Source: Candidatus Saccharimonadota bacterium (GTDB taxonomy: Bacteria > Patescibacteriota > Saccharimonadia > Saccharimonadales > VXPC01). Taken from it: 34,866 nt of DNA. The stretch spans positions 1-34,866 of the forward strand of contig JAPOWB010000004.1 in assembly GCA_026707815.1 (NCBI GenBank), written 5' to 3'. Of the stretch, positions 8,657-33,013 are shown one piece after another (the first letter of the stretch is position 1; each line of letters starts with the position of its first letter). Both the position numbers and the translations under genes were made by a program. The notes beneath the pieces are model-generated. The model had not been told where the DNA came from. It ran no database searches and worked only from the letters and a program-made list of their open reading frames with translations.

Positions 8657-8658
8657 CC

Positions 8659-10182: not shown

Positions 10183-10199
10183 CTAGTATTCTACCATAG

Positions 10200-10610
10200 T
10201 TGAACAACTCAAAGATAAGCCGACAAATCAGCACCAAAGAAGCTCAACTTGTAAAAGCCGTTGAACTCAGACTCAATGATGAAATAGATGAAAGTGAGCT
10301 TAAAACTATTAGAATTAAAAACAAAGACAGCCTAGACAAACTTCAATCACAGCTTGATTCTATCAATAAACTTTTAAGCCAAGAATCTAATCAAGTCTTA
10401 GATTTGGCTTCAATTATAAATGAATGCATTCACCTCTATAAATTAGCCAACAAACAAGAAAAAGGTTCGATACTTAAAATTGTCTGTTCGAACCTCTTTT
10501 TTGACGGCAAAAATATTAATTTACATCTGTCAAATCCCTTCAATTTGCTACAAGAATGTCATACTAGTTCACTATGGCGACTCCAAGTGAATCTATTTCG
10601 AACACTCTGA
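10200..10610 (+). pseudogene. C-terminal relic of a large serine recombinase
   Basis: Coiled coil then YKLANKQEKGSILKIVCSNLFFDGK...PFNLL...W..FRT, typical of serine-integrase tails; no catalytic domain. Confidence 0.7.
10575..10589 (+). other. Putative left attachment junction
   Basis: TGGCGACTCCA vs TGGTGACCCCA (32973, tRNA 3' end antisense): 9/11, same orientation. Confidence 0.55.
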
Positions 10611-10709
10611 CTCATTATATTGAATTATTCAATGATTTAGAAAAGAAATGTAATTTTGAATTAAACAAGAACCAAGAATTAACTTGTTTTATTTGCGAAA
10701 GGGGTTGCA

Positions 10710-11174
10710 ATGTTTAGTTTCTTACATAATCCGTCTCCTCAGCAACAACTATTATCTTCTAAGCTTTATAGTGAGGCAAACTTTTATAAAGCTTTTATCA
10801 AAGATTTAAAACAAGCCAAAAGAAACATTATCATTGACAGCTCTTATCTGACAGAGACAAGGGTCAAATATTTAGCTCCCTTACTTCAAAAATTAACCAA
10901 ACGCAAAATCAAAGTCAGAATCAATACACGAGATTTTGACCATCACAACCATGCTATGAGGCTTCAAGCCTGCAAGGCTCTCCAAATTCTCAAAACAACC
11001 GGAGTCAATGTCTATGCTTACAAAGACAGACGGCATTTTAAATTAGCCATCATAGACAAAGCTATTCTTTGGGAAGGTAGCCTCAATATTTTGTCTCACT
11101 CCAACAGCCGAGAAGTCATGCGTCGCAGTCAATCATCCAAACTGTGTCACCGGATGATTAAATTTATTAACTAA
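10710..11174 (+). CDS. Single-domain PLD-like (Nuc-type) nuclease
   Basis: HKD motif HFKLAIID followed by WEGSLN. Confidence 0.85.
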   Translation: MFSFLHNPSPQQQLLSSKLYSEANFYKAFIKDLKQAKRNIIIDSSYLTETRVKYLAPLLQKLTKRKIKVRINTRDFDHHNHAMRLQACKALQILKTTGVNVYAYKDRRHFKLAIIDKAILWEGSLNILSHSNSREVMRRSQSSKLCHRMIKFIN

Positions 11175-11192
11175 CTAAGATATACTAAAATT

Positions 11193-11408
11193 ATGAATGG
11201 CTATAAGATTACGGAAAAAGACATCCAAACTGTCATCAATTTTTTAAAGCGAGAAGATCCGAATAACGCCAACCGCCAGTATGCCCTCGAAGTGCTAGAA
11301 ATCCTTCATGCTACCATTAAAACCGCCGTTTCAAACGACCCCGACTTTGCCGAAGAACTATACAAAGCCCTCAAGCAAAAGCAGGGCTCAGACAAACAAA
11401 AAGACTAA
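11193..11408 (+). CDS. Small hypothetical protein
   Basis: 71-aa helical ORF co-oriented with the PLD gene. Confidence 0.7.
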   Translation: MNGYKITEKDIQTVINFLKREDPNNANRQYALEVLEILHATIKTAVSNDPDFAEELYKALKQKQGSDKQKD

Positions 11409-11620
11409 AAAGGCAGAATATCTGAAGCCTGAACTTTCAAAGCTTTGACCAATAAACCAAGCGTAAATATATTAGGAGTTGTCTCCCCTCTCTCAATTCG
11501 AGCATAATGACTAACATTAAGCCCCGTCTTTTCAGCCAACTCCAACTGAGTCAAACCTTTACTGAGCCTAACTTTCCTTAAATTCTTACCGATTGTTCTA
11601 ACTAGCTTATCCTGATTCAT
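11405..11620 (-). CDS. XRE-family helix-turn-helix regulator
   Basis: IGKNLRKVRLSKGLTQLELAEKTGL...ARIERGETTP. Confidence 0.92.
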   Translation of the reverse strand: MNQDKLVRTIGKNLRKVRLSKGLTQLELAEKTGLNVSHYARIERGETTPNIFTLGLLVKALKVQASDILPF

Positions 11621-11806
11621 ACTAAGACCCAGTATATCTTAAAAGACCAAGACCCACCAACAAACAAAACAAACCAAACTTTAAATACAAAGAGAACTCG
11701 TTATTACCCACTCATTCTATACATAATCCCCCAAAAAGCAAATAAATCTCACCCAACAGATATAAACACTCCAAAACCCAACCACTGCAAACCGAAAAAC
11801 AACCTA

Positions 11807-11911
11807 AAATAACAAAATATAGCTAAATTAGAACAAAAAATGCCACTTCTAGAACAAATTAGACCTGCTTTGGAACAAAAATAATCAGATTTAGGACATA
11901 AACCCAAATTT
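11807..11911 (+). repeat. 21-bp-period iteron-like array (4-5 units, core TTAGAACAAA)
   Basis: Cores at 11828 TTAGAACAAA, 11849 CTAGAACAAA, 11870 TTGGAACAAA, 11891 TTAGGACATA; partial at 11807 AAATAACAAA. Confidence 0.6.
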
Positions 11912-12054
11912 ATTGAGATCTAATTTAGGTTTGAATTGAATTATTAGCCCACCTAACAACTATATTTATGTTAGACTTCGATTAGGCTTGGTGTTATTTT
12001 GCCTGAATCGCAATAACGCTAAATCAATGTTCAGGCTGTCTAATAAATAATGAT

Positions 12055-14289
12055 ATGAAACTAAATAAAATACAGTACATAAACTTTGCCAGTTTTAAGG
12101 ATTTTGAATGTAGCAAAGACACTAAAGAATTCAGAAATATAAATATCATTTTGGGATGGAACGGCTCGGGTAAGACAACTCTATCTAAGGTTTTACGTTC
12201 CCTAGAATTAGAATTGCCCGAGGAAGGTATGAGCTTCCAATTAAAAATAGATTCAAGAAGATACACCGAATCTAACATGCCCCCGAATTCAACAAGCAAG
12301 ATAAGAGTGTTCAATAATGATTATGTGAAAAAGGTATTAGCATCTAATTCAGCAATCCCCTATGTATTTTACATCGGAGAAGAGGGTGTTGATTATGCCG
12401 AAAAAGAGCAAGAGTTACAAAGTAAGCAAGATAACTTAGACGGGCTGAAGTGTGATGCTGATAATCATGACCGTATAGCGACGGACACAGCTGGAAGAAT
12501 AAGAGATGTCGCAGGAATTAATATAATTCCTCGACCTCTTTCCGATGGTAAATATGGCGATTATGACAAAAGGGATTTTATATACCGCATTAAGTTTTTC
12601 GAGAATGAATTTGAAAAAGAAGGGTCGAAAATGCTCCCGGCGCAATACATAGAGAAAACCTATTTATTAACAGAGGATGAAGTAAAGAATTTCAGGAAGC
12701 AAATAAACAATTCTGAGCAGTTTAACAAAGTTGAACAGAAAACTAAGGAGATAATCGGCTGGATTAAAGATAATGAAGAACCCCTAAATTCCCTTTTGCA
12801 AAAGACCCCCGAACGGAGATCATCACAACGCATTGAAGATATGGATGCGGCGGAACAAGAATGGGTGCAATTAGGTGTAGGCATTCATTTCCCTGATAAT
12901 GACAACGATCCCAGGACAAAATGCTTGTTTTGTGCTTCGGATATTAAAAACGAAGAGGAGCTTCGTCTACACTTTTCTAAAGAAGTACTTGAGTTATCAG
13001 GCAGGTTGGAGGGCTTCGAAAAACAGATTGCCGAACATCAACAAACGCTAAATAATTTATCCGTTATAGATGCCGACCAGAAGACAACCATTAAAACTTT
13101 GAATGACCATCTTGATTCAGTACTTGAAAAAGTAAAAGAAAAAAGTGAACAAATTCCTGCTGCTTTAGACCCCTTGGAGCCATTCAATCCTAAACACCTT
13201 ACAAAGACCAATATTCCCGAAACAAGAACAGCGAACAGAGAACAATTTTGGGCTCAAAAGATTGAGTGTCATTATGTCGCGAAAGTAGTCGGGAAATATT
13301 TAGACGAAAAACAGCAATACGAAAAATGTGAAGAAGAACGCGGGGAATTATCACAAGAGATAGAAAAGTTAAACGAAGAGGTAGCTGAACTTAGGCTTAA
13401 AGCTCAGAATAAGCATGAAGCAGCGCAAAAGTTGAGTGATACATTTAAAGCTATTTTCCCATACGGACAAATAACAATACAGGATAATGATGAAAATACA
13501 GGGTACAAGCTCACAAGGGGTGGTGTTCCTTGCGATTTATCCAGTTTAAGCGAAGGAGAACACAATTTGCTGGCTCTGATGTATTTCTTAATTGCATTGA
13601 ACGATGAGAATCGTAAATTAGATGATAATGCCCTAATCGTCATTGACGACCCTATATCCAGCCTAGATAAGAACTCCATCTACCAAATTTTCTCTCTCAT
13701 AGTAGATGAAATTGAGAAGAATAAAGATAGCCGACAATACATTCTAATGACACATAGCTTAGATTTTCTGGGACATCTGCTTGAGCATTACAGAAAGAAA
13801 ATCAACGAACAGGAAGAAGAAAAGCAGACTGTCTGCCTCTACAACGTATCTTTATCTTCCGAGGGCTCGGAGATTACAAATATGAACAGTTTGTTACAGA
13901 AATATAAGTCTGATTACTATTATTTGTTTGACATCTTAAGGCGGAAGTTAAAAGGTTGTCCACCCGAAGAGAACTACTTAATAGCTAATCTTTTGAGAAG
14001 ATGGCTGGAAACTTTTCTCAACTTCAAATTTTCGTCTGACGGGAATTTCCAAGGTCTTTTAAGTAAAGCTCATAAAACAAGCGGGCTAGATCAAGACTCC
14101 AACTATCAGATAACAGCGTTGCGCAGATTCCTTGATTCTGGCTCCCATGGACTACCAGACACAGAAACATCAAACAACAGTCTCTTTGAGGATGATGTGA
14201 CCTCAATGATAAAGATGGCTTTTAAGCTGGTTGAAAAGACAGACAAGGATCACTTCTCTAAATTAAAGAAGGTGCTAGGTGAAACTTGA
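12055..14289 (+). CDS. AAA_13 / RloC-like ABC ATPase with zinc hook and C-terminal nuclease-like domain
   Basis: GWNGSGKTT, coiled coil with CLFC, LSEGE, IVIDDPISSLD, MTH; C-terminal RRWLE...RFLDSGSH. Confidence 0.8.
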   Translation: MKLNKIQYINFASFKDFECSKDTKEFRNINIILGWNGSGKTTLSKVLRSLELELPEEGMSFQLKIDSRRYTESNMPPNSTSKIRVFNNDYVKKVLASNSAIPYVFYIGEEGVDYAEKEQELQSKQDNLDGLKCDADNHDRIATDTAGRIRDVAGINIIPRPLSDGKYGDYDKRDFIYRIKFFENEFEKEGSKMLPAQYIEKTYLLTEDEVKNFRKQINNSEQFNKVEQKTKEIIGWIKDNEEPLNSLLQKTPERRSSQRIEDMDAAEQEWVQLGVGIHFPDNDNDPRTKCLFCASDIKNEEELRLHFSKEVLELSGRLEGFEKQIAEHQQTLNNLSVIDADQKTTIKTLNDHLDSVLEKVKEKSEQIPAALDPLEPFNPKHLTKTNIPETRTANREQFWAQKIECHYVAKVVGKYLDEKQQYEKCEEERGELSQEIEKLNEEVAELRLKAQNKHEAAQKLSDTFKAIFPYGQITIQDNDENTGYKLTRGGVPCDLSSLSEGEHNLLALMYFLIALNDENRKLDDNALIVIDDPISSLDKNSIYQIFSLIVDEIEKNKDSRQYILMTHSLDFLGHLLEHYRKKINEQEEEKQTVCLYNVSLSSEGSEITNMNSLLQKYKSDYYYLFDILRRKLKGCPPEENYLIANLLRRWLETFLNFKFSSDGNFQGLLSKAHKTSGLDQDSNYQITALRRFLDSGSHGLPDTETSNNSLFEDDVTSMIKMAFKLVEKTDKDHFSKLKKVLGET

Positions 14290-14390
14290 CAGTTATACAT
14301 TCAGTTCAAAATAAGCTTCAGCCCATGATGAAATTTTCACATCAACCAGCTATCTCTCAAATAAAGAGTTAAACCTCATCACTGATTGAT

Positions 14391-14996
14391 GTGTATAATA
14401 ACAGTTACTTGTTGCATTTAAGCAATTTAATGGATTACAATTTGGTCATAACTATCACGATTAGCCTTTTCTCTGTCCTTGTGACAATCATAGTCACTGA
14501 ATATATCAGATATATCTTAAATAAAGAATATAATGGAATAGTCTTAGCCAACTTTGTCAACAGCTGTATTGAAATCAGTGATGGATTAGAAAAAGCTATT
14601 AAAAAAGGAGAGCCAGAAAAAATGCTCTCAGTAATTAAAATGTTTAGCAAATTGAAACATGAATATCTTAAAAATATTAGAACAGACTTAATTACGAGAT
14701 ATTTTTTTGAACAGAGAATATTTAAAAAAATGAGGGTCAAAACATTAACTAAGAAGGATTTAGAGTTTAATAAAAAATCCTTATTCGAATCTGCCCAGAC
14801 GATTAAATTATCTATTTTAGATATGAGTCAAATTAAGAATATTAAAGAATTGAAACTTGAAAAAGGCGAAGGAAATTCATGGCGGATAATGATAAAGAAT
14901 AAGTACGGGTTTCCTTGCAAGTTTTCCGGTAGTTATTCCTCCAAAAAGAAAGCTAAACAGGTCTTAAAGAGAATTAAAAAGCATCAGGTTGATTAA
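14391..14996 (+). CDS. Hypothetical membrane-anchored basic protein
   Basis: One TM helix near the N-terminus; start uncertain. Confidence 0.6.
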   Translation: MYNNSYLLHLSNLMDYNLVITITISLFSVLVTIIVTEYIRYILNKEYNGIVLANFVNSCIEISDGLEKAIKKGEPEKMLSVIKMFSKLKHEYLKNIRTDLITRYFFEQRIFKKMRVKTLTKKDLEFNKKSLFESAQTIKLSILDMSQIKNIKELKLEKGEGNSWRIMIKNKYGFPCKFSGSYSSKKKAKQVLKRIKKHQVD

Positions 14997-15057
14997 TACC
15001 TAGCTCTGTCAAAACACGTGATAGGTTGAAGATTTTTGTTTTTTGTTATATTAGCAT

Positions 15058-17910
15058 CTAATTTAAAAACTCTGTTGTCTCAAGGTCTGGAGTATCTACC
15101 ATAAAAACATCTATTAAATTCATAACTTCCTTTTTAACCCTTTCAATGATTGGTCGCCTCTTAAGAATTCGTGGCTTATTATTTAATATATTGGCAATTT
15201 CCTCATTAAGGGGTTCACGACCATGAAACATGAAGTTTGCAATAATTTCTTCTAGTTTCTGTCTGTCAATATTTTCACTTTCGCAAAATTGATTAAAAGC
15301 TAACTGCTTCTCTTCTTCCCAATAATCAACGAATTTTTCTAAAACTTGTTCTGGGTCTTCAATTATTGGCAAACTATTGTCTATGAATTTTTTAATCAAT
15401 CCTTGCTTGCTTCTTAAAACTACTTCGCTAGATATAAGTGTTAATATTTGTTCTTTTTGCCGTTGAATTTCTAGTTCAGATTTCATTTTATTCATCTTAG
15501 ATATGAGTTTAAGGATATAAGCTACGTTAATGTTATCTCTATGGATTAACTCAACTTCAAAATCAACATCTTCAAGAATAGATGCCTGCTCTTTCTGAGT
15601 GTCTGTCCTGACTTTATCCCATATGTCCAGATATTTACTTTTGTAATCCTCAAACTGTTGTTCGGCAATATTCAGATCAGAAAATTTAAAATCAGAAAAT
15701 CCAATCAAATCGTTCATAAATCTCAATAAATTTCTAAAAGCTTGGACAAACCGCATTTCATCGTCTTCCGATGGTAATTTATTCACGCTTTCAACGGTTG
15801 GGGTGATTGAATATAAAATTTCAATAGCTTCATTAAATTTATCAACATAGTAACTATATGGTTCTGTAAAAATAATTTCAGGGGCATCTTTATTAGAATA
15901 TAAAGCTATAGCATCATCTGTGTTCTTTTTTAAATTTCTAAAGCAAACAATATTGCCATGGGATTTCCTTTCATTAAGAATGCGATTAGTTCTAGAAAAA
16001 GCTTGAATTAAACCGTGATAGCGTAAGTTTTTATCTACATATAAGGTATTTAAATGAGGGCTATCGAAACCAGTTAGAAACATATTGACCACTAACAAAA
16101 TATCAATTTCCTGATTTCTTACTCTTTTGGCAATATTTTGATAATAATCGTAATAAAGCTTTCCATCTTTAGTCGAATAGGCAGTATCAAACATCTTATT
16201 ATAGTCATCAATAAATTCGTCTAATTTTTCGCGAAAATGAGTATTAATCTTTTTGCTTTCAATAACAGACAAAACATCATCTTCTAGCAACTCGTTATCC
16301 TCTTCACTTTCCTGATTAGCTCCATAAGAGAATATAGTAGCTACTTTTAAATCATGCTTACCTTCACTCTTCTTGGTTTGAAAAAGCTCATAATATTTAA
16401 TCAGGACATCGATTGAATTGACGCATAAAATGGCTGTAAAAACTTTGCTATGAGTTTTACGATCATGATTGACTAAAATATAATCGATAATTTTTTCAAT
16501 CCTCTTTCTTGACTCCATTAATTCTTTGGTATCTATAGCCTCAACTTCAATATCTATTTCATTATTGCTAGAAATTTGCCTATATCTGCCGACGTATTCA
16601 TTAGAAAATCTAAGCACGTTTTCGTCCTTTATGGCATCGGTAATCGTATAACGATGCAGTTGTTTATCAAATAAATCCTTGGTGGTTTTCTTGCTGATGG
16701 CATTTTCCGCTAGGATAGGTGTTCCAGTAAAACCGAACATTTGTGATTTTAAGAAATGGTTTTTAATTTTGGCGTGAGTTTCACCGAATTGGCTGCGATG
16801 ACATTCATCAAAAATAAGAACGACCCTTTTATTTTTTAGTTTTTCCATAATATTTTGATGACGACTATAAGAAACAGCATTGTTCAATTTTTGTATAGTA
16901 GTAACAATTAATTTAGTGTTGTCTGTTAATTGTTTGACTAAGGCTTTTGTATTGTCTGTGGCATCAGCAGAATTGGCTTTGTAAGCATTAAATTCCTGAA
17001 TTGTCTGATAATCCAAATCTTTGCGATCAACTACAAAAATAATCTTTTTTATTTCAGGCAAAGCAGATAATAGTTGGCTGGCTTTAAAGGAGGTTAAAGT
17101 TTTCCCCGAACCAGTAGTATGCCAAATATAGCCGTTTTTATCTGAGTTTAATACTCTATCAATAATTGATTCTACTGCGTAATATTGATAAGGTCGCAAA
17201 ACCATCAATTTTCTCTCAGTTTCATTTAAGACTGTATATTGAGCGATCATTTTTGACATATGGCAGGGTTCTAAGAAAATATCTGTAAACTCACTTAATT
17301 GAGTGACGGAAACATTATCTTTATCTGACCAGTAAAAAGTCTGTTTAAAAAACCGCCTTTTATTATTAGCATAATATTTGGTGTTAACTCCATTACTAAT
17401 TACAAAAAATTGAATGTATTGGAATAAGCCATAACCAGCACTATAAGAGTGTTGTTGGTAGCGTTTAGTTTGCTTAAAAGCCTCCTTGAGTTCTAAGCCC
17501 CGCCTCTTCAACTCTATTTGCACCAACGGTAAGCCATTCACTAATAGAGTAACGTCATATCTGTTTTTATACCTTCCCTCCATCTCTATTTGTTGGGCAA
17601 CTTGAAAAATATTTTTGCACCATTTATCTATGTCAAAAAATTCAATCCATTCTAAATCACCATTGTCGCGAGTAAGTTGCATCTTGTCTCGCAAAATCTT
17701 CGATCTCTCAAAAATATTGCCTTTATTTAAATGATTTAAAATATAACTGAACTCCTTATCGCTAAAAACAGTTTGATTATGTTTGCTAAGCTGGATTCTC
17801 AAATTAGCTACAATGTCAGCTTCATCTTTAATTTCAATTTTGCCGTAACCCAAATCAACTAATTGATTAATCAGTTTCCTTTCTAGTATTGCCTCTGACT
17901 CCCTGTTCAT
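15058..17910 (-). CDS. hsdR: Type I restriction endonuclease subunit R
   Basis: LPLVQIELK, HTTGSGKT, DECHR, FLTGFD, QAFSRTNR; ATG 17910 overlaps the hsdS stop (ATGA). Confidence 0.95.
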   Translation of the reverse strand: MNRESEAILERKLINQLVDLGYGKIEIKDEADIVANLRIQLSKHNQTVFSDKEFSYILNHLNKGNIFERSKILRDKMQLTRDNGDLEWIEFFDIDKWCKNIFQVAQQIEMEGRYKNRYDVTLLVNGLPLVQIELKRRGLELKEAFKQTKRYQQHSYSAGYGLFQYIQFFVISNGVNTKYYANNKRRFFKQTFYWSDKDNVSVTQLSEFTDIFLEPCHMSKMIAQYTVLNETERKLMVLRPYQYYAVESIIDRVLNSDKNGYIWHTTGSGKTLTSFKASQLLSALPEIKKIIFVVDRKDLDYQTIQEFNAYKANSADATDNTKALVKQLTDNTKLIVTTIQKLNNAVSYSRHQNIMEKLKNKRVVLIFDECHRSQFGETHAKIKNHFLKSQMFGFTGTPILAENAISKKTTKDLFDKQLHRYTITDAIKDENVLRFSNEYVGRYRQISSNNEIDIEVEAIDTKELMESRKRIEKIIDYILVNHDRKTHSKVFTAILCVNSIDVLIKYYELFQTKKSEGKHDLKVATIFSYGANQESEEDNELLEDDVLSVIESKKINTHFREKLDEFIDDYNKMFDTAYSTKDGKLYYDYYQNIAKRVRNQEIDILLVVNMFLTGFDSPHLNTLYVDKNLRYHGLIQAFSRTNRILNERKSHGNIVCFRNLKKNTDDAIALYSNKDAPEIIFTEPYSYYVDKFNEAIEILYSITPTVESVNKLPSEDDEMRFVQAFRNLLRFMNDLIGFSDFKFSDLNIAEQQFEDYKSKYLDIWDKVRTDTQKEQASILEDVDFEVELIHRDNINVAYILKLISKMNKMKSELEIQRQKEQILTLISSEVVLRSKQGLIKKFIDNSLPIIEDPEQVLEKFVDYWEEEKQLAFNQFCESENIDRQKLEEIIANFMFHGREPLNEEIANILNNKPRILKRRPIIERVKKEVMNLIDVFMVDTPDLETTEFLN

Positions 17911-19076
17911 TGTATAAATAGTCTTTGCATTAACCCTTTTTTGTATAGCTTCCAATATATGATATTGGTCTTTGCAATTGATGCTATTTTGTCCAAAATA
18001 TTTAACACTTGCTCTATTCTTTCTTGCTCTTTAATTGCTGGTATTGAAATCTGCAAATATTGGTATTCTGAAATCCAATGTCTTTTATGTCCTCGTGGTT
18101 TGTATTGTATTTGAGTTAGTAGCTCGTATATAACCTTAGGTCGAATGTTTTTATTAAATTTTAAAATTTTCATAGCAGAGGATTTAACCTTGAATTCAAA
18201 ATTTACAAATTGTTTAGATGTGGTAAAGTCATCAAATATTACAACCGGTAGCTTTGTAAATCTGTTGTCAGATTCATTAGTATAGCCTAGTATGAAAGTT
18301 TTGCCAGCAGTTAGAATCGGCATAGAACCCTTCTCACAATATTGCTTACAAGTGGTGATATATCTAGTTGGTTGTTCATAAGTTAATAACTCTTTTAATC
18401 TATAGGTTTGCCAGTTGGGGTAGTTATACCCCCCCCCGTCCTTGAATCTAATCTTTTTATTAAAGATTTGTTGCATTAACCCTTTTTTATATTGCTCAAA
18501 CTGATATTTTTGTTGCTCTAAGAGATTAAGCTTGTTATTCACAGTATCAAAAAAATCAGCTATCTTCTCTTGCTCTTCAATACAGGGTATTTTTAGTTTA
18601 AAATCTGCTAGGGTACTAAAATCAAGAGAATCCCTCACTGATCCTAAAGTGCCAGTTTTTATTAAATGCTGAAAATAATGAGTTTTTAAAATATGTTTTA
18701 AAAAATTTTCATTTAAATTATTACTACATCTAAATACGATATACATAGGACTAATAATTCCAATATCAAATTCTGTTAGATTGGCAATAGAACCCACATT
18801 GATTCTCGATGGATTGTAAGCGAAATCACCCCTCTCAACAATTTTATAATTCAAGGTATCTCTACTTGCAATTCTGTGATTATTAAAATATTCAGATTGT
18901 TCTATAAATCCATGTAAATTGCTAACAGTTAATAGCCTATTTATTTCGCCGTTTTTGTTGCGAATAGATTTATGAGTAATGAGTTCTCCCAGTCTAATTT
19001 TTTCCCATTCAGGGTAATCCTTACCATTCTTGTCCTTAAATCTTAAATGAGGAATATATTCAGAAGATATTTTCAA
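17907..19076 (-). CDS. hsdS: Type I R-M specificity subunit
   Basis: Two TRDs with conserved PCIEEQEKIA / PAIKEQERI and KKGLMQ repeats. Confidence 0.93.
   Translation of the reverse strand: MKISSEYIPHLRFKDKNGKDYPEWEKIRLGELITHKSIRNKNGEINRLLTVSNLHGFIEQSEYFNNHRIASRDTLNYKIVERGDFAYNPSRINVGSIANLTEFDIGIISPMYIVFRCSNNLNENFLKHILKTHYFQHLIKTGTLGSVRDSLDFSTLADFKLKIPCIEEQEKIADFFDTVNNKLNLLEQQKYQFEQYKKGLMQQIFNKKIRFKDGGGYNYPNWQTYRLKELLTYEQPTRYITTCKQYCEKGSMPILTAGKTFILGYTNESDNRFTKLPVVIFDDFTTSKQFVNFEFKVKSSAMKILKFNKNIRPKVIYELLTQIQYKPRGHKRHWISEYQYLQISIPAIKEQERIEQVLNILDKIASIAKTNIIYWKLYKKGLMQRLFIQ
18429..18437 (-). repeat. In-frame poly-G9 in the hsdS central region
   Basis: GAC GGG GGG GGG TAT (D-G-G-G-Y) between TRD1 and TRD2. 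Confidence 0.85.
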
Positions 19077-20614
19077 TTCCTAACTCCTTTGTATATTGAT
19101 TAATTTGAGCCTGAATCTTAATTCTTTCTTTTTCTAAATCTCTAATATTGTCAGATATTTCATCAATATCAATAAATTTCTCTTCTTCAAATGTATCTAC
19201 ATAAATGGGAATATTTAGCATATAATTATTTCTTTCAATATCGTCTAATTTGACAAGATGGCTAAACATTTTTATTTCAGATCTTAATCTATATGTTTGA
19301 ATAATTTTATCTATATGTCTAACCAACAATTTATTTTTCTTTTTAGTTTTTTCAAATTCTTTAGAAGCATCAATAAATATTATATTGTCATCGGTTTCAC
19401 GACATTTTTTAAAAATCAAAATACAAGCAGAAATATTTGTTCCATAGAAAAGATTAGGAGGTAAACCAATCACAGCATCTAGATAATTTTTTGTTTCAAT
19501 TAAATATCTTCGTATATGTGCTTCGCCCCCCCCCCCGAGACAAAGCACCATGAGACATAATAGTTGCCATAACTCCATTTTCATCTAAGGAATGTATCAT
19601 GTGTTGTATAAAAGCATAATCTGCATATTTTTTGGAAGCCAATCTACCATATTGTGAAAATCTATCATCACTTTTAAAAAGTGGGTTAGCTGACCAATCT
19701 GCTGAAAATGGAGGATTTGCTACCACCGCTTCAAATTTTCTATCTTTGTGCATGGGTCTTTCTAGGGTATCAGCTTGTTTAATATCAAACTGATTATAAT
19801 GAATATCATGAAGAATCATATTCATTCTAGCTAAGTTATAAGTTGTCAGCACTTTCTCTTGACCAACGTATTCACCCACCTCCTTAACTTCCTTAGCTAC
19901 ACGCAATAATAATGATCCTGAACCGCAAGTTGGATCATAAACGTTTTTTAATTTGTTTTTACCAGTTGTTACAATTTTTGCCAATACTTTTGAAACTTCT
20001 TGTGGGGTATAAAATTCTCCAGCTTTCTTGCCTGCTCCAGCAGCAAACTGACTAATTAAATATTCATATGCATCTCCTAAGATGTCGATACTGGAGTTTT
20101 CAAGTTTAAAGTCGATGTCATCTAAATGAAGCAGTATTTTAACAATTAAGTTATTTTTCTCATTTTCAGTTTTACCTAATTTAGGAGAAGATAAATTTAA
20201 TCCTTCAAATAAATTATCAAAATCATCTTCACTATTTGTCCCCATGGTGCTTGATTCGATGTTTTTGAGGATTTTTTGTAAATCTTCTAAGATAAAATTA
20301 TCCTTTCCTTTTTCAGCAATGGCATGAAAAAGTTCGGATGGTTTCAAAAAATATCCCAAAGAATCAAGAGTCTCGATTTTAATTTCTTCCAATATATTCT
20401 TGCCTTGCTCAGCATTTTCATCTACATCTTCGTAATTGCAATTATCTTGTTGGAGTAATTCATTAGCTTTGATATGTAATTTTTCAGATAGGTACTTATA
20501 AAAGATAAAACCAAGAATATAATCACGAAATTCATCTGCATTCATCTGACCCCTGAGAGTGTTAGCTATATTCCAAAGTTGTTTTTCTAGCTGGTGTTTT
20601 TGATCTTCAGACAT
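19060..20614 (-). CDS. hsdM: Type I R-M methyltransferase, frameshifted at poly-G11
   Basis: GEFYTP, DPTCGSGSLL, ANPPFS; ORFs 19496-20614 and 19060-19584 join into 517 aa if one G is removed (HGALSRGGGEAHIRRYLIE). Confidence 0.92.
19526..19536 (-). repeat. Poly-G11 tract at the hsdM frameshift
   Basis: C11 on the plus strand; G10 restores the frame. Confidence 0.9.
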
Positions 20615-20716
20615 TAATTATGTTTATTTTTTTAAATATTGTCGTCTTATTACAGTTATACCTAAAATCAAATATTTTATCAATATGACAACTGCTAAGC
20701 AGATATGCCTCTTTTA

Positions 20717-22999: not shown

Positions 23000-23585
23000 C
23001 TCCTTTTAAAAACAAATACGGATCAACATTAATATCTGAGACCTTAATCATCAGATAAAAATGAGGATTGCTAAAACCCAAAGTCTCACCTAAATAACCT
23101 ACGATTTCACCAGCTTCAACTATTCGGTCTATTTCAAGTTCCTCATTAATTTCGCTCAAAAAACAATAAAAGGCTTTCAAGCTCTCAGTTTGAATAACCA
23201 CTGATCTGCCGCAATCCTTATCTGTCTTGTTATCATTAATAGCTATGATTCGCCCATCAAATACAGCTTCCACTCCCAAATCATAGAAGTCATACTTTTG
23301 AGCAATGATCAGCCCTTGCTTTAGATGGGGCTGAATTGCTTGATTGTATCTTAAAACCAGTTGTTCTCTGTTTAAGAAACTGTCATTCTTAGGCAGAGTC
23401 GTTACTATTTGTCCGTTAACATCCAGCAGCTCAACGTATGTTTCTTGGTCTTTAACTAAGGCTTGTTCAACTTCAGCTATTGATTGATGACTAACAATGA
23501 TCAAAAAGACAATCGGCAAAAGCAAGATGCTAACCAAGATCAAGCCCAGCAAGACATAGATTTGGATAACCGTAGATCTAAGCAT
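22932..23585 (-). CDS. Membrane-anchored M23-peptidase-like protein with degenerate active site
   Basis: AVFDGRI...GRSVVI...VEAGEIVGYLGET...NPH fold motifs; ATG 23585 overlaps the virB4-like stop. Confidence 0.7.
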   Translation of the reverse strand: MLRSTVIQIYVLLGLILVSILLLPIVFLIIVSHQSIAEVEQALVKDQETYVELLDVNGQIVTTLPKNDSFLNREQLVLRYNQAIQPHLKQGLIIAQKYDFYDLGVEAVFDGRIIAINDNKTDKDCGRSVVIQTESLKAFYCFLSEINEELEIDRIVEAGEIVGYLGETLGFSNPHFYLMIKVSDINVDPYLFLKGGELVDYSWLLNTESGIEYDTDF

Positions 23586-25767: not shown

Positions 25768-25772
25768 ATCCC

Positions 25773-26060
25773 CTATTTCCTAATATATTGTTTCGGACGA
25801 CGATAGAATTTAAACATGATGACCAACCACTGATAAAGCAGTCTCTTCTGAATCCTTATGGCTAACAGGCAACAAATAAAACCTAATTCAAAGACAATTA
25901 AACTCTTATAGGCATGCCAACTAAAAGTGGGTGGCAAAAAGATCAGCAATAACCCGACAATAACCGGCAGAATTAGCAGTCCAGCTTGTTTGGGAGAGAT
26001 AAAGCCAACGATTCGATCTTCCTTGTTTAAAACTTCAGCCGGTATATCTTGATCTCTCAT
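25773..26060 (-). CDS. PrgI/VirB3-like membrane protein
   Basis: IPAEVLNKEDRIVGFISPKQ, two TMs, RPKQY; immediately upstream of the virB4-like gene. Confidence 0.8.
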   Translation of the reverse strand: MRDQDIPAEVLNKEDRIVGFISPKQAGLLILPVIVGLLLIFLPPTFSWHAYKSLIVFELGFICCLLAIRIQKRLLYQWLVIMFKFYRRPKQYIRK

Positions 26061-27334: not shown

Positions 27335-27340
27335 GAATAT

Positions 27341-27679
27341 TTAACTCCCGAAAGTTTCTACGGCTAAATCATTAATAATCCCGGACAAAGCGAAAGCTCC
27401 AATGACTATTACCAAGCCCAAACTGGCAAAGACCAAAGTCTTCTTGGCTTTTTCCAGTGCCACCGGATTGCCGCTGCTAGTAATGAAGCTCAGTCCGCCA
27501 AGCACGAAAAAACCGGTCGCAATCAGACCGGCTATTCCTGCTACTATCTTAATTAGATTTTCTATGAAATTATTGACTTGTTCGACCCCTTGAGATGTTT
27601 GAGCCAAAACTTCAGGCGATGAAAGAAACCAACTGCTAAGCGTAATTCCGACAATCAAGCTGATAATTAATCTTTTCAT
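27341..27679 (-). CDS. VirB2/TrbC-like pilin
   Basis: Signal peptide then GGLSFITSSGNPVALEKAKKTLVFASLGLVIVIGA. Confidence 0.8.
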   Translation of the reverse strand: MKRLIISLIVGITLSSWFLSSPEVLAQTSQGVEQVNNFIENLIKIVAGIAGLIATGFFVLGGLSFITSSGNPVALEKAKKTLVFASLGLVIVIGAFALSGIINDLAVETFGS

Positions 27680-27839
27680 AATTTAACTCAAACTTAAATT
27701 GTCTAAACTATACCAGAATATTTTATTAAATGCAAATTAGTTGTATACTTAAGAAGTTTGGATTAAATATCACAGTAGTTTACAGCAAGTCATAATTTAG
27801 ATATATTTAAGAATAGGAAGGTATCAAAAAATATAAATT

Positions 27840-27986
27840 ATGCCCAATATATCAAAAAGAGATGAGTTGCATGTTCCCCTATTGAAAGTCATGCAACAGT
27901 TAGGAGGTAGGGTTAAAACCAAGAACGCTGTTGAAGAAGTAGCAAATTTTTGGCAACTTCGGATTTTAGAATTTAACATTTTTTAA
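27840..27986 (+). pseudogene. Possible Mrr N-terminal (winged-helix) fragment
   Basis: Manual translation MPNISKRDELHVPLLKVMQQLGGRVKTKNAVEEVANFW...* (48 aa). Confidence 0.45.
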
Positions 27987-28045
27987 TGTTTAATTTCTTG
28001 TTAACATAAATATAATAAATTCCGAAAACACAAGTTTAAATAGTA

Positions 28046-29179
28046 ATGCAAGATTCCATCCAAACAAAGTATCATAAGCAAGGTGTCTCATCTGTGAATC
28101 ATATTATTCTTGATGAAACACCTACAACTCGTCTAATCTTTTATCCCAAAGTACACGATAGCGGCGTGAGAGGAGATATAGTGCGCCAAAAAATCGGTTC
28201 TGATGGGCAATGGAAAGACAGAAACGACATTGATTTCAGATCATTAGAGGCAGACAAGGGTGTCAAAATTCCAATTAGCACCAAGGCGACTGATTTATTA
28301 TTTAACAAGCTTAGATCTTTATATGAAATTGTTAAAAAAGGAGCGCCTCGCTCTAACAAAGAACTTATAGTTACAGAATCAGATAAAGCTTTGACTATAG
28401 ATGACAGAAATAAACAAAGAATTCTTCAGCAAATTATAAATCAAAATTATTCTGAGTCATTTTGGGAGGAATTATCAAAAACAAGTCCTAAGCTTGCGAC
28501 GCAATTCTCTATAGATCGAATCCAATTAGATAGACAAGAAGTAATTAAAGAGTTCAAAACATCATTAATTCAGCATGCTAATGAAGAAAAATATTGGCAA
28601 AAATTTTTTGAGGATAATCCTTGGATGCTACAAGTAGCATTTGGGGCTTCTATATTTATGTTGGCGGGGGAAACATATTTAGGTGGTAAATCAACTAAAG
28701 GCAAGCAGGGGCGTGGTGGCGTCTCAACTGATTTTCTTTTCGCTGATGAAAGTACTAAAAGCTTTGCAGTTATGGAAATCAAAAAACCAAAATCTAGTTT
28801 AATGTTAAAATCTGCATATCGAGGCAAACTAGGCTCTAATCTCAAAAATGAAATTTATAGTTTAGGTTCTGAGCTTTCAGGAGCCATTGTTCAGGCACAA
28901 AGCCAATTAACAGTGGCAATCGAAAATTTTCAATCTTTATTAGGAGATAATGCTGAATTTTCTTACAAGATTAATCTTATAGATCCTAAAGCTATTCTAG
29001 TTATTGGCATGTCAGGTGAATTACAGCAACAAAGACAAAAAGATTCGTTTAATCAATTTCGTTCAGGGCTTCATAGCCCAATAATAGTTACTTTTGATGA
29101 ACTATATCATAGGTTAAGTCAAATATATGGAATCAGTTCTCAGGATGAAGATATAGACTCAAATGATATGCCCTTTTAA
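28046..29179 (+). CDS. sduA: Shedu anti-phage nuclease (DUF4263)
   Basis: EKYWQKFFEDNPWML, TDFL, MEIKKP, ELSGAIVQ, ILVIG, IVTFDEL. Confidence 0.88.
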   Translation: MQDSIQTKYHKQGVSSVNHIILDETPTTRLIFYPKVHDSGVRGDIVRQKIGSDGQWKDRNDIDFRSLEADKGVKIPISTKATDLLFNKLRSLYEIVKKGAPRSNKELIVTESDKALTIDDRNKQRILQQIINQNYSESFWEELSKTSPKLATQFSIDRIQLDRQEVIKEFKTSLIQHANEEKYWQKFFEDNPWMLQVAFGASIFMLAGETYLGGKSTKGKQGRGGVSTDFLFADESTKSFAVMEIKKPKSSLMLKSAYRGKLGSNLKNEIYSLGSELSGAIVQAQSQLTVAIENFQSLLGDNAEFSYKINLIDPKAILVIGMSGELQQQRQKDSFNQFRSGLHSPIIVTFDELYHRLSQIYGISSQDEDIDSNDMPF

Positions 29180-29193
29180 TTATAATCATTGAT

Positions 29194-29502
29194 ATGGCTA
29201 GAAGATACAATAAACGAAGCAATTATCATAGAATCAAGAAGAATTATAAACGACATAGAAACAGTAGGCAAAAGGATAATTTAGAAGACTTTCTATCTAA
29301 TAAAGATGTTTTAGTATTCATATCTAAAATTATAATTACTATACTTCTCATTATTACTGTAGTCGGGGGTGTTTTGTTCGCTGTTTATAAAATTTGGCAT
29401 CAAGCCGAATGGCTTAAATTAACAAAGATTATCTTAACGGCAGTTACTGTGCTGGCTGGTGCTAGCATTTTATACGGAGCATACCATTTTTTGATTAGTT
29501 GA
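29194..29502 (+). CDS. Small two-TM protein with basic N-terminus
   Basis: 14 bp downstream of sduA; two hydrophobic helices. Confidence 0.6.
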   Translation: MARRYNKRSNYHRIKKNYKRHRNSRQKDNLEDFLSNKDVLVFISKIIITILLIITVVGGVLFAVYKIWHQAEWLKLTKIILTAVTVLAGASILYGAYHFLIS

Positions 29503-29580
29503 TTAATATAATGATTTGTTAACATATCATGCTAGTTTAATGCTTCAGAAATTTATTAATTTGCTAGAATATTAAGTGTA

Positions 29581-30168
29581 ATGAAAATAGAAAAGTATAC
29601 AGTTAATCTAGATGGCAATGATTTAGTCATTAAAGTTGCTCATCTAGATCAGAGTGATGGTCAAATCTTTAAAGAATTATTTGATTTATGGAAGAAGCTC
29701 AACGACGGACTTAAGCAATATGGTCGGATGGCGACCTTGCCAGAAGTCATCTCGGAAGGTATGTTTTGTGTTTTCACAGGTTCAGCGAGATATCAGGAAA
29801 GAGTTAGTGGCAAGAGTTCTGTATCTTTTGATGCTATTAATACGCAGAACAATCGTAAAGAACAAATTAAAGCTTCCAGCGTTGAAGAAGATCTAACTTC
29901 TTTCAGCCCGAATTCTAGCTGGGATGATTTGTATTTTATGGATTTTTATAACGGTGGTAAATTAGATGGTTCATTTAATTTATACCAAATCCCTGATCAA
30001 TATATTCGATCTATGAAAGTTAGTCAACAGCAAACTTTTAGAGACCAACAAGCTCAAGGCAGAAGACCAAGATTTAGTATTACCAAAGATATTATTAAGA
30101 AGTATGACTTGCAACCAATTGCAACTGACGTACGGGTTTGGCATTCTGATAATCAAAAGCCTGGGTAA
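29581..30168 (+). CDS. Type II restriction endonuclease, Bsp6I-like
   Basis: LPEVISE, QIKASS, DLTSF, QQAQGRRPRFSI; convergent with a C5 MTase. Confidence 0.8.
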   Translation: MKIEKYTVNLDGNDLVIKVAHLDQSDGQIFKELFDLWKKLNDGLKQYGRMATLPEVISEGMFCVFTGSARYQERVSGKSSVSFDAINTQNNRKEQIKASSVEEDLTSFSPNSSWDDLYFMDFYNGGKLDGSFNLYQIPDQYIRSMKVSQQQTFRDQQAQGRRPRFSITKDIIKKYDLQPIATDVRVWHSDNQKPG

Positions 30169-31093
30169 TTTGTCTAGCAACAGCCTGAATAACCGGCACA
30201 CTGACACTGTTACCAATCTTGTGATAAAGAACAGTATTACTTAATTCTTCAGGCAAAAGATAGCTATCATCAAAGCCTTGTAATCTAGCACATTCTCTAG
30301 GGGTTAATTTTCTTAGACCTCGTCCATCTTGAACAAGAGGGACATTATGTCCACCCGTTCCCATATTAGCTGTTAAAGTTGGACAAACACCTTTTTGGTT
30401 CTTTCTAATATATTTTCTCCGCCACTGGTAAACTTGTCCTTGCTTGAAAGGATAATCTTTTAAAGATTCAAATAAAGGCTTATCATTGTAATAGTATTTA
30501 TCATCAATATCTTGGGGGTCATCTAACATATCTTGAATGGTTTGAATTAGTGCAATTGGATTAGGAAAGATAAAATTATCGCAAAGCTTTGGATCCTTAA
30601 AACCAACTATGTAAATTCGCTCTCTATTTTGAGGCAGATTACCATACTCCATAGTATTCATCACTTGAGCTTGAAAATGATAGCCGACATCTCTTAAGGC
30701 TTGACTCATAATCCTAAAAGTTCTACCGCCATCATGACTTCTCATATTCTTCACATTTTCTAATAAAAACCCTAGAGGTTTTTTAACTTTTAAAATCTTA
30801 ATAATATTAAAAAATTGATTACCTCTCTCATCCTCTAAACCCTTCTGATAACCAGCAATGGAAAAAGCCTGGCAAGGAAAACCAGCTAATAAAAAATCAA
30901 AATCTGGTAAAGAGTGAGTCTTAATAGCTCCTATATCTCGTGTATCAAGTTGAGCTTCACTAAAATTAGCATCATAAATTAATTTACATCTTACATCGCA
31001 ATCATTAGCAAAGACTGTTTTAAAACCCAGTTGACTAAAACCTAATCTAATACCACCCATACCAGCGTATAAATCAATTGATTTTAAATCCAT
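30095..31093 (-). CDS. DNA (cytosine-5) methyltransferase
   Basis: DLYAGMGG, GFPCQAFS, ENVK, QNRERIY, LQGF, GNSV. Confidence 0.95.
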   Translation of the reverse strand: MDLKSIDLYAGMGGIRLGFSQLGFKTVFANDCDVRCKLIYDANFSEAQLDTRDIGAIKTHSLPDFDFLLAGFPCQAFSIAGYQKGLEDERGNQFFNIIKILKVKKPLGFLLENVKNMRSHDGGRTFRIMSQALRDVGYHFQAQVMNTMEYGNLPQNRERIYIVGFKDPKLCDNFIFPNPIALIQTIQDMLDDPQDIDDKYYYNDKPLFESLKDYPFKQGQVYQWRRKYIRKNQKGVCPTLTANMGTGGHNVPLVQDGRGLRKLTPRECARLQGFDDSYLLPEELSNTVLYHKIGNSVSVPVIQAVARQITQAFDYQNAKPVRQLQLVASHTS

Positions 31094-31159
31094 CGTAATC
31101 CCCTTAAATTACATTTCTATTTCAATTGTATCATTAATTTCATATTAGACATAAAACTA

Positions 31160-31189
31160 TTGACATTGTCCTTATAGGTATAGTAAAAT
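31160..31189 (+). promoter_or_regulatory. Candidate sigma70 promoter for the recombinase
   Basis: TTGACA(31160)-18 bp-TAAAAT(31184). Confidence 0.45.
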
Positions 31190-31321
31190 GTACTTAAAAG
31201 CATAGTTAACAAGGGTTTCGTGGGATGGTCAATAAAAGTAATCAAACTATCAATTTATCTCTAGAAGATAGATTAACTATCTTGGCTGAACTGTTCCTAG
31301 AAATTATTTTAGAGGAAGGTA

Positions 31322-33013
31322 ATGATAGCGACTGAATCAACTGCTAAAACTATTAATGCCGTCGGAGCTATCAGAGTTTCCAGCGTTAAACAGGGCTTGA
31401 AAGGTGATTCTCCCGAAGCTCAGAAAGAACAAATTGAACAATTTGCCCAAAACAAGGGTTTCAACATTAAGAAATTCTTTGTTTTCATGGAATCGGCATC
31501 TAAGGAGCAACAACCAATGCAGGAAGCTATAGATTATTGCAAAGATCCCAACAATCAAATTAGTCATTTTATTATTAAATCTATCGATAGATTTACTAGG
31601 GGTGGTTCACTGCCTTACGACTTGCTTAAAAACCAGCTAGAAGCTTCCAAAGTTAAACTAATAGATATCTACGGTATCATTGGCTCAAACCAAGTTAACA
31701 CATTGGAACATTTAGGAGTTGAATATGGGTGGAGTGTTTATTCTCCTTCCAAGAAATCTGAGATCTTAGAGGCTGAAAGATCGAAGGACGAGCTGCGAGA
31801 TATTATGACTCGCATGGTCGGAGCTGAAGTCCGTTATACTAGGCTTGGTTATTGGATGAGAAGACCGCCATATGGCTATGCCAGTCAAAAAAATCACACT
31901 GATCATGGCAAAAGAACTATCTTAGTTCCACATCCTAATGAATCCAAGTTTATTATTGAAATATTCCGACTTCGTTCTTTGGGTCAATACAGCGATAAGG
32001 AAATAGCCAACAAAATTAACGAAATGGGTTATTTAGGACGCATTAACCCATCTAACACTTTAAAACATACTTCCTTGAACGCTTCTAAAGTATGGCGAAT
32101 AGTCAGAAAACCTATTTACACCGGCATTAATAATGAAAAATGGACTAACAACCAACCGGTTAAATGCGTTTTTAAAGGATTAGTGTCTATTGAAACTTTC
32201 AATAAAGCTAATAAGGGCAGAAGAATTATCAGGGAATGCAATGGGGAAATTATAATCAAAGACACAAAAGCTGAGCGTTATTCAACTAGGCAAGGCACTA
32301 GAAGTCAGGATTTCCCTTACAAGCAATTTGTTATGTGTCCCAAATGTGAATTACCCCTTTCTGGTAGCTATTCAAGGGGTAAAAGTGGCAAGCGTTATCC
32401 CGCTTATCACTGCAATCGCCAAGGGCATTATTTCAGAGTCAGAAAAGAAAAATTGGAAGACAAAGTTCATCAACTCATCCTCTCGCTTCAACTATCTCCC
32501 AAACATGTAGATAAGCTAACTCACAGCCTAGAATCAGTTTTCAAGGTTATTGAACAGCAACATCAAGCTAAATTATCTAGCTTAGATGCACGAATCAGTT
32601 CAGTGGAAAATGAAATCAAAGCCATAGTCAATAAATTCAAAATTCTTACCAACCAATTTGCTATCAAACATTTGGAAAATGATTTGGAAGAATTGGAACA
32701 ACGATTGACTCTGCTAAAGAGTAAGAAGCTTGAGCTTGCCAAACAAAAACCCTTCAATTTAGGAGATTTTGCCACTAAGCTTAAACACGTTTTCGAACAC
32801 CTAGACAAGAGCTTCGTCCAACAGATGTCAGAGGCTAAGAAAGCCAAACTTTTCAGCTTGCTTTTCAACAAATTGCCGACTTACGACAAATTAGAGTTTC
32901 GAACACCCAAAGATCCAATTTTTACAGATGTAAATCCGTTATTTTCAATTAAAAATTCTAATTTATTACGTTTGGTGACCCCAGGGGGAATCGAACCCCC
33001 GTTTCCAGGATGA
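31322..33013 (+). CDS. Large serine recombinase (integrase)
   Basis: IRVSSVKQ catalytic Ser, IDRFTR, PPYGY, zinc ribbon CPKC...YHC, coiled coil; the last 13 codons are tRNA antisense. Confidence 0.93.
   Translation: MIATESTAKTINAVGAIRVSSVKQGLKGDSPEAQKEQIEQFAQNKGFNIKKFFVFMESASKEQQPMQEAIDYCKDPNNQISHFIIKSIDRFTRGGSLPYDLLKNQLEASKVKLIDIYGIIGSNQVNTLEHLGVEYGWSVYSPSKKSEILEAERSKDELRDIMTRMVGAEVRYTRLGYWMRRPPYGYASQKNHTDHGKRTILVPHPNESKFIIEIFRLRSLGQYSDKEIANKINEMGYLGRINPSNTLKHTSLNASKVWRIVRKPIYTGINNEKWTNNQPVKCVFKGLVSIETFNKANKGRRIIRECNGEIIIKDTKAERYSTRQGTRSQDFPYKQFVMCPKCELPLSGSYSRGKSGKRYPAYHCNRQGHYFRVRKEKLEDKVHQLILSLQLSPKHVDKLTHSLESVFKVIEQQHQAKLSSLDARISSVENEIKAIVNKFKILTNQFAIKHLENDLEELEQRLTLLKSKKLELAKQKPFNLGDFATKLKHVFEHLDKSFVQQMSEAKKAKLFSLLFNKLPTYDKLEFRTPKDPIFTDVNPLFSIKNSNLLRLVTPGGIEPPFPG

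Follow-up and report, generated by a model that had tools for sequence, protein, structure and literature searches.

What does a recombinase gene encode when its reading frame runs across the attachment (att) site of the element that carries it, and does the protein change with the state of the DNA? This question is raised by a genomic island in a contig of 34,866 nucleotides (contig C5 of our set, JAPOWB010000004.1 of assembly GCA_026707815.1; the whole contig is called the window below) from a Candidatus Saccharimonadota bacterium, whose genome comprises 692 kb in nine contigs with 36% G+C, the genomes of its relatives measuring 0.5-1.8 Mb. The island encodes a large serine recombinase (LSR) that reads antisense into a tRNA-Glu gene at one end, and a PLD-family protein at the other. 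An earlier reading of the letters alone, the sequence-only reading, had placed the att site inside the LSR gene, so that excision would exchange the C-terminus of the recombinase and couple it to the PLD gene. We find that the crossover falls in frame within the LSR open reading frame (ORF), that the integrated and the joined state of the DNA encode two LSR isoforms, and that the joined state couples the LSR gene to the PLD gene and to an ORF of 71 residues. We consider it likely that the island was inserted by its own LSR into the 3' end of tRNA-Glu with the att core lying in the ORF, and that the DNA state decides which protein is made.

Besides the genomes of relatives we used contigs from five sequencing runs, X1-X5. 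X1-X4 are runs of the probable source sample, of which X1-X3 were compared with the window, and X5 is a run from a separate sponge metagenome study with a strain 95-99% alike to the window. All of these data are Logan contigs, without raw reads, and rare variants are invisible in them. The features at issue are the following.

31322..33013, plus strand: large serine recombinase (LSR), integrated isoform, 563 aa (ORF translation, Pfam, Foldseek on the model of a relative)
32973-33047, minus strand: tRNA-Glu(UUC), the integration target, 3' end rebuilt by the element (ARAGORN)
10586..32983: island, 22,398 bp (boundaries from the X5 empty-site contig, give or take the shared core)
10575..10585: attL core (TGGCGACTCCA), displaced 3' end of an earlier tRNA (X5 contig, attL/attR pairs of relatives)
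32973..32983: attR core, 11 nt in register with 10575-10585, 9 of 11 identical (same evidence)
10586..10717, plus strand: tail-coding segment, 43 codons and a stop, in frame with the LSR across the att core (open frame, conservation, natural fusions)
10598..10603: TCGAAC motif in the P' arm, displaced 5 bp outwards relative to the tRNA T-loop copy at 32991-32996 (motif positions in relatives)
10710..11174, plus strand: PLD-family protein (single HKD, Nuc-like), 154 aa, first gene of the island (Pfam PLDc_2, 4.4e-11)
11193..11408, plus strand: conserved 71-aa ORF after the PLD gene (tblastn matches in 26 of 34 PLD loci)

The crossover lies within the recombinase gene

The tRNA-Glu(ttc) at the right end of the island is the only one among the 38 tRNA genes of the genome. 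The LSR ORF is intact and ends ...LRLVTPGGIEPPFPG; its last 41 nt are the antisense of the tRNA 3' half, and its stop codon falls in the anticodon loop. Residues 1-554 are encoded by the element up to the att core and the last nine (GGIEPPFPG) by the antisense strand of the tRNA. The protein matches the Pfam families Resolvase (7.8e-9, 36.2 bits at a cut-off of 23.3) and Recombinase (1.5e-7, above the cut-off), and Zn_ribbon_recom below the cut-off of 25.3 (E 0.0068, 17.2 bits). It contains the motif AIRVSSVKQ, which we take to be the serine nucleophile motif. A search of NCBIfam gave only a weak match to CcrB, and a PDB sequence search gave no match to solved integrases at E <= 0.001. The AF2 model of P0003, a natural long form that is 53% identical to the LSR of the window (33 alignment rows, mean pLDDT 71.7), matches the structures of the SPbeta, phiC31, Bxb1, and LI integrases with Foldseek E-values of 1.8e-17 to 1.4e-9, and for the full-length SPbeta, phiC31, and Bxb1 integrases the match extends over about 560 columns at a probability of 1.00. 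Long helices are modelled at residues 400-446 and 451-480, and the coiled-coil comprises about 80 residues. The enzyme has the marks of a large serine recombinase, namely an N-terminal resolvase-type domain, DBD1 and DBD2 with a coiled-coil, and attB and attP arms whose outer motifs are offset by about 5 bp.

The boundaries are given by an empty site. A contig of X5 with a depth of 47 runs from 10475 to 10585 and continues with 23 nt identical to 32984-33006; it has two differences from the window, whose positions are not listed. Therefore, the island comprises 10586-32983 and the crossover took place within 10575-10585, corresponding to 32973-32983. The crossover is thus inside the LSR ORF and in frame, within the 11 nt of codons 552-554, as the sequence-only reading had held; its island boundary near 10575 and every one of its coordinates (the tRNA, the 563-aa ORF, the frame at 10574, the PLD start) proved correct. 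A second X5 contig with a depth of 12 contains 10575-11966 preceded by 198 nt of other DNA, of which the last 30 letters are open in the frame of the recombinase tail. Any crossover within the 11 nt keeps the frame and gives the same product of 597 aa, consisting of residues 1-554 and the 43 codons of 10586-10714. A crossover in the first six to seven nt of the core appears favoured, given that the natural proteins P0003 and P0004 show no difference as far as ...FPLV and have different tails beyond it, and that TGGTGA is nearly invariant in the cores of the relatives.

As a direct repeat, attL and attR of the window do not stand above chance, sharing 10 of their first 13 nt. Agreement reaches position 13 with three mismatches, compared with position 17 (two mismatches) in G011, position 16 (one mismatch) in G030, and position 8, partly further, in G059. 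Blastn-short with the tRNA found no copy at 10575 and no repeat in G003 or G011 either, because the cores are too short or mismatched, and they were located via the PLD tail only. Beyond the core, the P' arm resembles the tRNA arm with about five extra nt before the motif T[CG]GAAC, which is found at positions 24-29 in nine relatives and 25-30 in two, the tRNA T-loop copy being at 19-24. According to the accessible passages of PMC11722253, the DBD2 motif is shifted by 5 bp between the attB and attP arms of serine integrases, and an LSR half-site extends about 25 bp from the centre. By these motif positions, the att arms of the window fit the 5-bp rule for attP and attB of LSRs.

The same arrangement is found in relatives. 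An LSR match is present in 33 of 60 relative genomes (34 of 61 if the genome of the window is counted, with the unpublished G037 among them), and among 14 near-full-length loci that were read, with 41-60% identity, 11 run antisense into a called tRNA (nine Glu, one Lys, and one Phe). Two of the other three are cut by contig ends but have tRNA-like tails, and one is broken. Two further LSR subfamilies also read into tRNAs with overlaps of 41-44 nt, the second at tRNA-Asn/Asp and the third at tRNA-Met/Glu. Three relatives from these other subfamilies (G026, G046, and G033) have clean direct repeats of the tRNA end at the far end, of 15, 18, and 21 nt (E 0.002 to 3e-5). Because the clean repeats reach 15-21 nt only, the LSR stop codon is beyond the crossover and the att site inside the ORF in all three subfamilies. 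In these three relatives the carried-over frame has 16-22 codons and is not conserved. At about 148.8-149.9 kb of its contig C5, G026 also contains a mini tandem consisting of a tRNA-end repeat, about 900 nt, a 38-nt stump of a recombinase 3' end with a 17-nt tRNA fragment, and the current element.

A crossover in the anticodon loop, an idea taken from the position of the stop codon and from perfect copies of the tRNA-Glu 5' half in contig C4 of G003, is ruled out for these recombinases by the clean repeats of 15-21 nt and by the X5 contig, which switches by position 11. The copies themselves are two, of 30-31 nt, starting from the anticodon stem and located at 40713-41121 (L029/L030) to the right of the tRNA-Glu. 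Their flanks are repeated, with a short palindrome about the anticodon stem, and they resemble what is left of a different type of element, which targets the anticodon loop and carries the 5' half.

The far-end reading frame and its natural fusions

At the far end, position 10574 reads ATG GCG ACT CCA, and the frame stays open for 47 codons up to the TAG at 10715-10717, which overlaps the PLD start at 10710. By our estimate, a frame of this length in DNA of 35% G+C has a chance probability of about 0.04. The observation is more than chance because of the X5 empty site, the conservation of the frame in 33 of 34 loci, and the fit of the peptide to a conserved tail. These loci derive from 35 unique PLD loci in genomes, of which L082 was left out because it has no usable start codon. 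In 33 of the remaining 34, a frame whose stop overlaps the PLD ATG (mostly as ATGnTTAG or ATGnTTAA) is open for 33-605 codons upstream, while the other two frames are open for 0-25 codons, except in L072, where a different overlapping frame is open for 43 codons. Six divergent loci (L072, L077, L091, L099, L100, and L111) were left out of the tail alignment. The other 28 peptides align with the pattern LV..G..(W/S)NTL(Y)..L..L..KL..LG, often followed by (I/L)VE.DG...Y...E...NV and the stop, and many of 80 metagenome PLD loci carry this motif as well. The 47-aa peptide of the window has the conserved V, seven residues, and NTL in the same spacing and ends with NV. Judged by the alignment, the far-end frame at 10586-10717 is a conserved coding segment. 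Searches for a family of the tail gave nothing below E 0.03 in Pfam and nothing below 0.027 in PHROGs, with single members only. The spacing also rules out a 1-nt gap in the G-run between attL and the tRNA, which would have given a tail of 10 aa, since the natural fusions described below share it. A second type of tail, W(L/Q).I...YRTLIG, is found upstream of PLD in L077, L099, and L100 and in the metagenome loci L133, L138, L142, L150, L165, and L187; its frame is the one in which recombinases translate TGG as a codon (ends of the tRNA-Asn type).

The joined form exists in nature. In five of the 34 PLD loci (G122, G392, G102, contig C25 of G057, and contig C33 of G048), an LSR, whole or cut by the contig end, continues through the tail as far as the PLD start, and there is no tRNA. 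In G122, which is a one-contig genome, in G392, and in G048 the fusion marks the internal junction of elements arrayed in tandem, where the LSR of one element is followed by the tail and PLD of the next, whose own LSR ends in tRNA-Glu; in the other two the contig ends cut off the context. The 600-aa protein from G057 ends with ...LVTSPGMERNTL..., and homologues ending in a tail like xxPxxxxSNTL, which the sequence-only reading had called for, are therefore found, as full-length recombinases fused to a similar tail whose stop overlaps the PLD start. The claim that the fused operon exists only in the excised form fails, given the tandem junctions. Most of the close relatives of the G057 protein in the protein database have 569 aa and end with ...LVTPRGIEPLLPG, and three have 588-595 aa and other tails; what lies beyond the att site explains why recombinases are annotated with 569 or with 588-600 aa. 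P0024, an LSR of the third subfamily, carries the tail of P0003, the G057 tail. From these patterns it follows that the tail moves together with the PLD end and that the core is the exact point of exchange. Another recombinase of the second subfamily (L050, G036:C7 56863-58413) ends with ...SQNQSWL and 18 other residues with no tRNA nearby, while a close relative in contig C16 of G057 ends in tRNA-Asn; judged by these ends, L050 is probably another joined or tandem junction.

In the model of P0003 the att-encoded residues 554-568 are predicted to be disordered, and the tail beyond them to fold into a helix (570-579) and a hairpin with strands at 582-585 and 588-591 (pLDDT 72-78). The PLD protein has one HKD motif per chain and a small size like the Nuc-like single-HKD proteins, and from these features nuclease activity is predicted. 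The residues H109, K111, and D116 are invariant in 32 sequences, and there is a weak match to NucT in NCBIfam (6.2e-5). The 71-aa ORF has no match in Pfam or NCBIfam. A complex prediction for two PLD chains and the tail scored 0.01 against a mark of 0.32, which is evidence neither way. The PLD gene marks the left end of the element: it directly follows an LSR stump in G003, is located 23.6 kb upstream of the LSR in G011, and 22-26 kb from the LSR on the same contig in G030, G059, and G019. The arrangement reaches beyond one contig, with the PLD gene in 106 of 401 genomes from the order (counting the unpublished G037 and G280), a PLD relative encoded on at least 554 metagenome stretches, and all three LSR subfamilies reading into tRNAs.

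Possible roles of the tail exchange and known systems

We propose that the LSR of the island inserted it into the 3' end of tRNA-Glu by a crossover within the final 11 nt of that gene. When integrated, the LSR ORF continues into the tRNA antisense strand, adding nine residues dictated by the tRNA to give 563 aa. If the ends are joined, either in an excised circle or by an adjacent second element, it continues into the other end of the island and gains a conserved module of 43 aa to give 597 aa. This module is predicted to be a flexible linker followed by the helix and the hairpin; its stop lies on the PLD start codon, and LSR, PLD, and 71-aa ORF would be one translationally coupled unit. After excision, the recombinase promoter would drive the long isoform and, through the overlap of stop and start, PLD. 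After integration, the recombinase would end in the tRNA and the unit of tail and PLD would lose the recombinase promoter; a scan for sigma-70-like promoters on the plus strand of 10586-10710 found none, which is weak evidence. A circle would form in the organism of the window, and the long isoform would be the integrating form. By exchanging the tail and losing the PLD coupling, the element might adjust the direction or the level at which it recombines and need no separate directionality factor. We have good confidence in the tail exchange and in the production of the long isoform; control of the direction of recombination by this exchange is only a tentative suggestion.

Several observations speak against this proposal. 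The sequence-only reading had advised a search for the empty site and the circle, of which the empty site is present in the X5 contigs and the circle junction was seen in none of the contigs; X1, X2, and X3 show the integrated form only, with no joints or loose ends. A contig of G059 (C11) that spans a whole element ends as the integrated form and not as a circle, and every fused form with a readable context is a tandem junction, not a circle. The tail of the window is among the most divergent, with 3-25% identity to the others in the alignment. The swap of a tRNA-derived tail for a longer one had been predicted and is borne out (9 aa for 43 aa, with natural fusions in relatives), but the CxxC that the long tail was said to contain is found in the window only and is not conserved. 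The codon-position test on the tails is weak, with differences of 0.354, 0.256, and 0.372 per position in 19 pairs. The P' arm has its conserved DNA motif where the tail motif has NTL, and these residues may be kept partly by the DNA site rather than by the protein. In addition, the integrated frame begins with the ATG at 10574 and may be translated separately. Finally, hsdM is divided into two overlapping ORFs on the minus strand (19496-20614 and 19060-19584), which looks like a frameshift or a phase-variable break, and this copy of the island would thus carry at least one damaged cargo gene.

Three other explanations were weighed. The frame upstream of PLD could be a small gene or leader of its own, started at an ATG, TTG, or GTG in the tRNA end and coupled to PLD, with its match to the LSR frame a by-product of the att site. 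The ATG at 10574 and the TTG GTG of the relatives at the same place would serve as starts, and the overlap of stop and start shows coupling to PLD, not to the LSR. However, the DNA upstream of attL is foreign and different in every locus, so that no conserved ribosome-binding site or promoter is possible, and the window shows none; in natural junctions LSRs of two subfamilies run on into the frame without a break, and the spacing from core to motif is fixed at seven residues. We regard a separate small gene as quite improbable. It is also unlikely, if somewhat easier to imagine, that the island in this genome is a fixed fossil and the tail exchange a historical by-product of a compact att site with no present role. 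The difference between attL and attR at positions 4 and 8 of the 11-nt core, the split hsdM, the source-sample contigs with the integrated form only, and the presence in the genome of at least four LSR remnants, all decayed and located at other tRNAs or close to them, would suit a fossil. Against it, the strain in X5 has the empty site as the major form and the end of the island in another context, the LSR ORF is intact with its catalytic motif, and of the 40 differences listed among the 91 between X5 and the window none falls in 10575-10740, compared with 13 listed in the PLD gene.

A third explanation is that only constraints on the DNA, namely the attP arm and the ribosome-binding site of PLD, keep the frame open, and that the long protein would be neutral even if produced. 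The residues with the best conservation (W/S-N-T-L) do overlie the T[CG]GAAC motif and the codon-position signal is weak, but the frame is open for about 130 nt compared with the half-site of about 25 bp (an extent taken from the accessible part of PMC11722253), L..L..KL..LG lies beyond the half-site, and AF2 predicts an ordered helix-hairpin in the tail. We consider this very improbable.

Serine integrases owe their value to recombination in a single direction, the reverse reaction requiring a separate protein; how the reaction is reversed in elements that lack a recognisable directionality factor is a question still to be answered. A recombinase that alters its own C-terminus with the state of the DNA, by a conserved module tied to a nuclease-like gene, offers a testable proposal for built-in control of direction. 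In its strongest form, which is possible but doubtful, the topology of the element would itself be the directionality factor: the long isoform, made only from joined ends, would be the integrase, and the short isoform with the tRNA tail, made only after integration, would be competent for excision or silenced. The 43-aa helix-hairpin would then act in cis on the coiled-coil hinge, the site of the separate directionality factors in phiC31- and SPbeta-type systems, and joining of the ends would be required to switch on the PLD and 71-aa genes. According to passages of PMC11722253, a small protein determines the direction in phiC31- and SPbeta-type systems, and its helix is packed between DBD2 and the hinge of the coiled-coil; integrases fused to the directionality factor are described as functional there and in parts of PMC5737554. 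From the position of the factor and the working fusions it follows that a cis-acting C-terminal module is mechanistically plausible, and that a helix-hairpin present in one state only could be a built-in control of direction or activity. If true, this would be a self-contained two-state serine integrase without accessory protein, widespread in small-genome bacteria.

By our comparison, the closest precedent for the island is the IntP/IntX arrangement of Mx8, which has a tyrosine integrase. Its target is reportedly tRNA-Asp, and the forms of the integrase are said to have been named IntP in the phage and IntX in the prophage. As far as the accessible text of the Mx8 study goes, attP is inside the integrase coding sequence, and integration makes a recombinant gene with a new 3' end whose altered protein is active with changed properties (PMC6070905). 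In both cases the crossover is inside the recombinase ORF at a tRNA gene and integration changes the 3' end. The Mx8 integrase is, however, a tyrosine recombinase whose prophage form loses a long C-terminal part, while the enzyme of the island is a large serine recombinase in which a small appended module is swapped and a downstream operon is coupled or uncoupled as well. The island therefore matches the Mx8 type in having attP within the integrase gene and, not sharing the tyrosine chemistry, is not a member of it. The sequence-only reading had likened the locus to the switch of phage BPs with attP in the repressor gene. In BPs and its relatives, according to parts of PMC4557955, this position of attP makes immunity dependent on integration. 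The likeness holds in that attP is inside a gene, integration changes the C-terminus of its product, and the DNA state sets the phenotype, but in BPs the gene is that of the repressor, whose truncated form is reportedly stabilised, and is accompanied by a tyrosine integrase, and in the island it is the recombinase gene itself, and Mx8 is the closer precedent. No repressor was recognised next to the att site among the ORFs scanned with Pfam, and no evidence for a degradation tag was obtained.

With the phiC31, Bxb1, SPbeta, and LI/A118 integrases the enzyme shares the fold, the domain order, the coiled-coil, and the 5-bp shift of the outer-arm motif. In contrast to the island, which targets a tRNA 3' end, canonical serine integrases have attP outside the ORF and a separate protein for direction. 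The tRNA-targeting islands of the Islander type (as far as described in accessible parts of PMC4383910) resemble the element in the site at the tRNA 3' end, the rebuilding of this end, the displaced fragment that marks the far boundary, and the tandem arrays; they differ in that they typically have tyrosine integrases and longer identity blocks, whereas here a serine recombinase is combined with a shared core of no more than 11-21 nt. Our searches of open-access text turned up no description of a serine integrase whose own ORF contains attP.

Cargo and older elements in the window

By Pfam, the cargo of the island consists of an AAA_13 ATPase, a type I restriction-modification system, VirD4-like and VirB4-like ATPases, an M23 peptidase, PrgI, two type IV secretion system pilins, Shedu, and a Bsp6I-like endonuclease with a C5 methylase. 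Of the parts of an integrative and conjugative element, the VirB4-like and VirD4-like proteins, PrgI, the pilins, the M23 peptidase, and the LSR are present, and the empty site is found in another sample; no relaxase family was matched among the 20 island ORFs scanned. Past 11966, directly ahead of the AAA_13 gene, the island in X5 no longer follows the sequence of the window, as in a cargo swap behind a conserved module of tail, PLD, and small ORF.

Two further features lie to the left of the island.

10200..10574, plus strand: remnant, C-terminal ~125 aa of an older LSR of the second subfamily, adjoining the displaced tRNA end
8659-10182, minus strand: OLD-family nuclease, in the island-like left part of the window

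The DNA just left of 10574 is not plain chromosome. The ORF at 10200-10610 has no Pfam match but matches the C-terminal 120 residues of LSR open frames of 483-535 aa in 16 of 60 related genomes (best E 5.8e-16), which read into tRNA-Asn or tRNA-Asp. Judged by these matches, 10200-10574 is the stump of an earlier element whose recombinase also adjoined the tRNA end and behind which the present island inserted, and it is evidence for tandem accretion at tRNA-Glu. In the frame of this ORF an intact tRNA-Glu end would read TGG TGA (W and stop); here a T is changed to C, and the frame continues to 10610. The left part of the window, positions 1-10200, is island-like as well, with RHS and MORN repeat ORFs, two PIN-domain ORFs, a zeta-toxin fragment, and a DUF3800 ORF besides the OLD-family nuclease, and contains a G+C-rich block at about 7500-10000 (0.44-0.48 compared with about 0.32). 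Elsewhere in the genome, other stumps of the present LSR subfamily adjoin tRNA-Arg, tRNA-Ile, and tRNA-Gln. At 108205-109285 of contig C4 of the same genome (G000), a PLD remnant with 69% identity over residues 102-152 is located just upstream of a decayed recombinase abutting tRNA-Ile, and this arrangement looks like a collapsed element of the island's own family.

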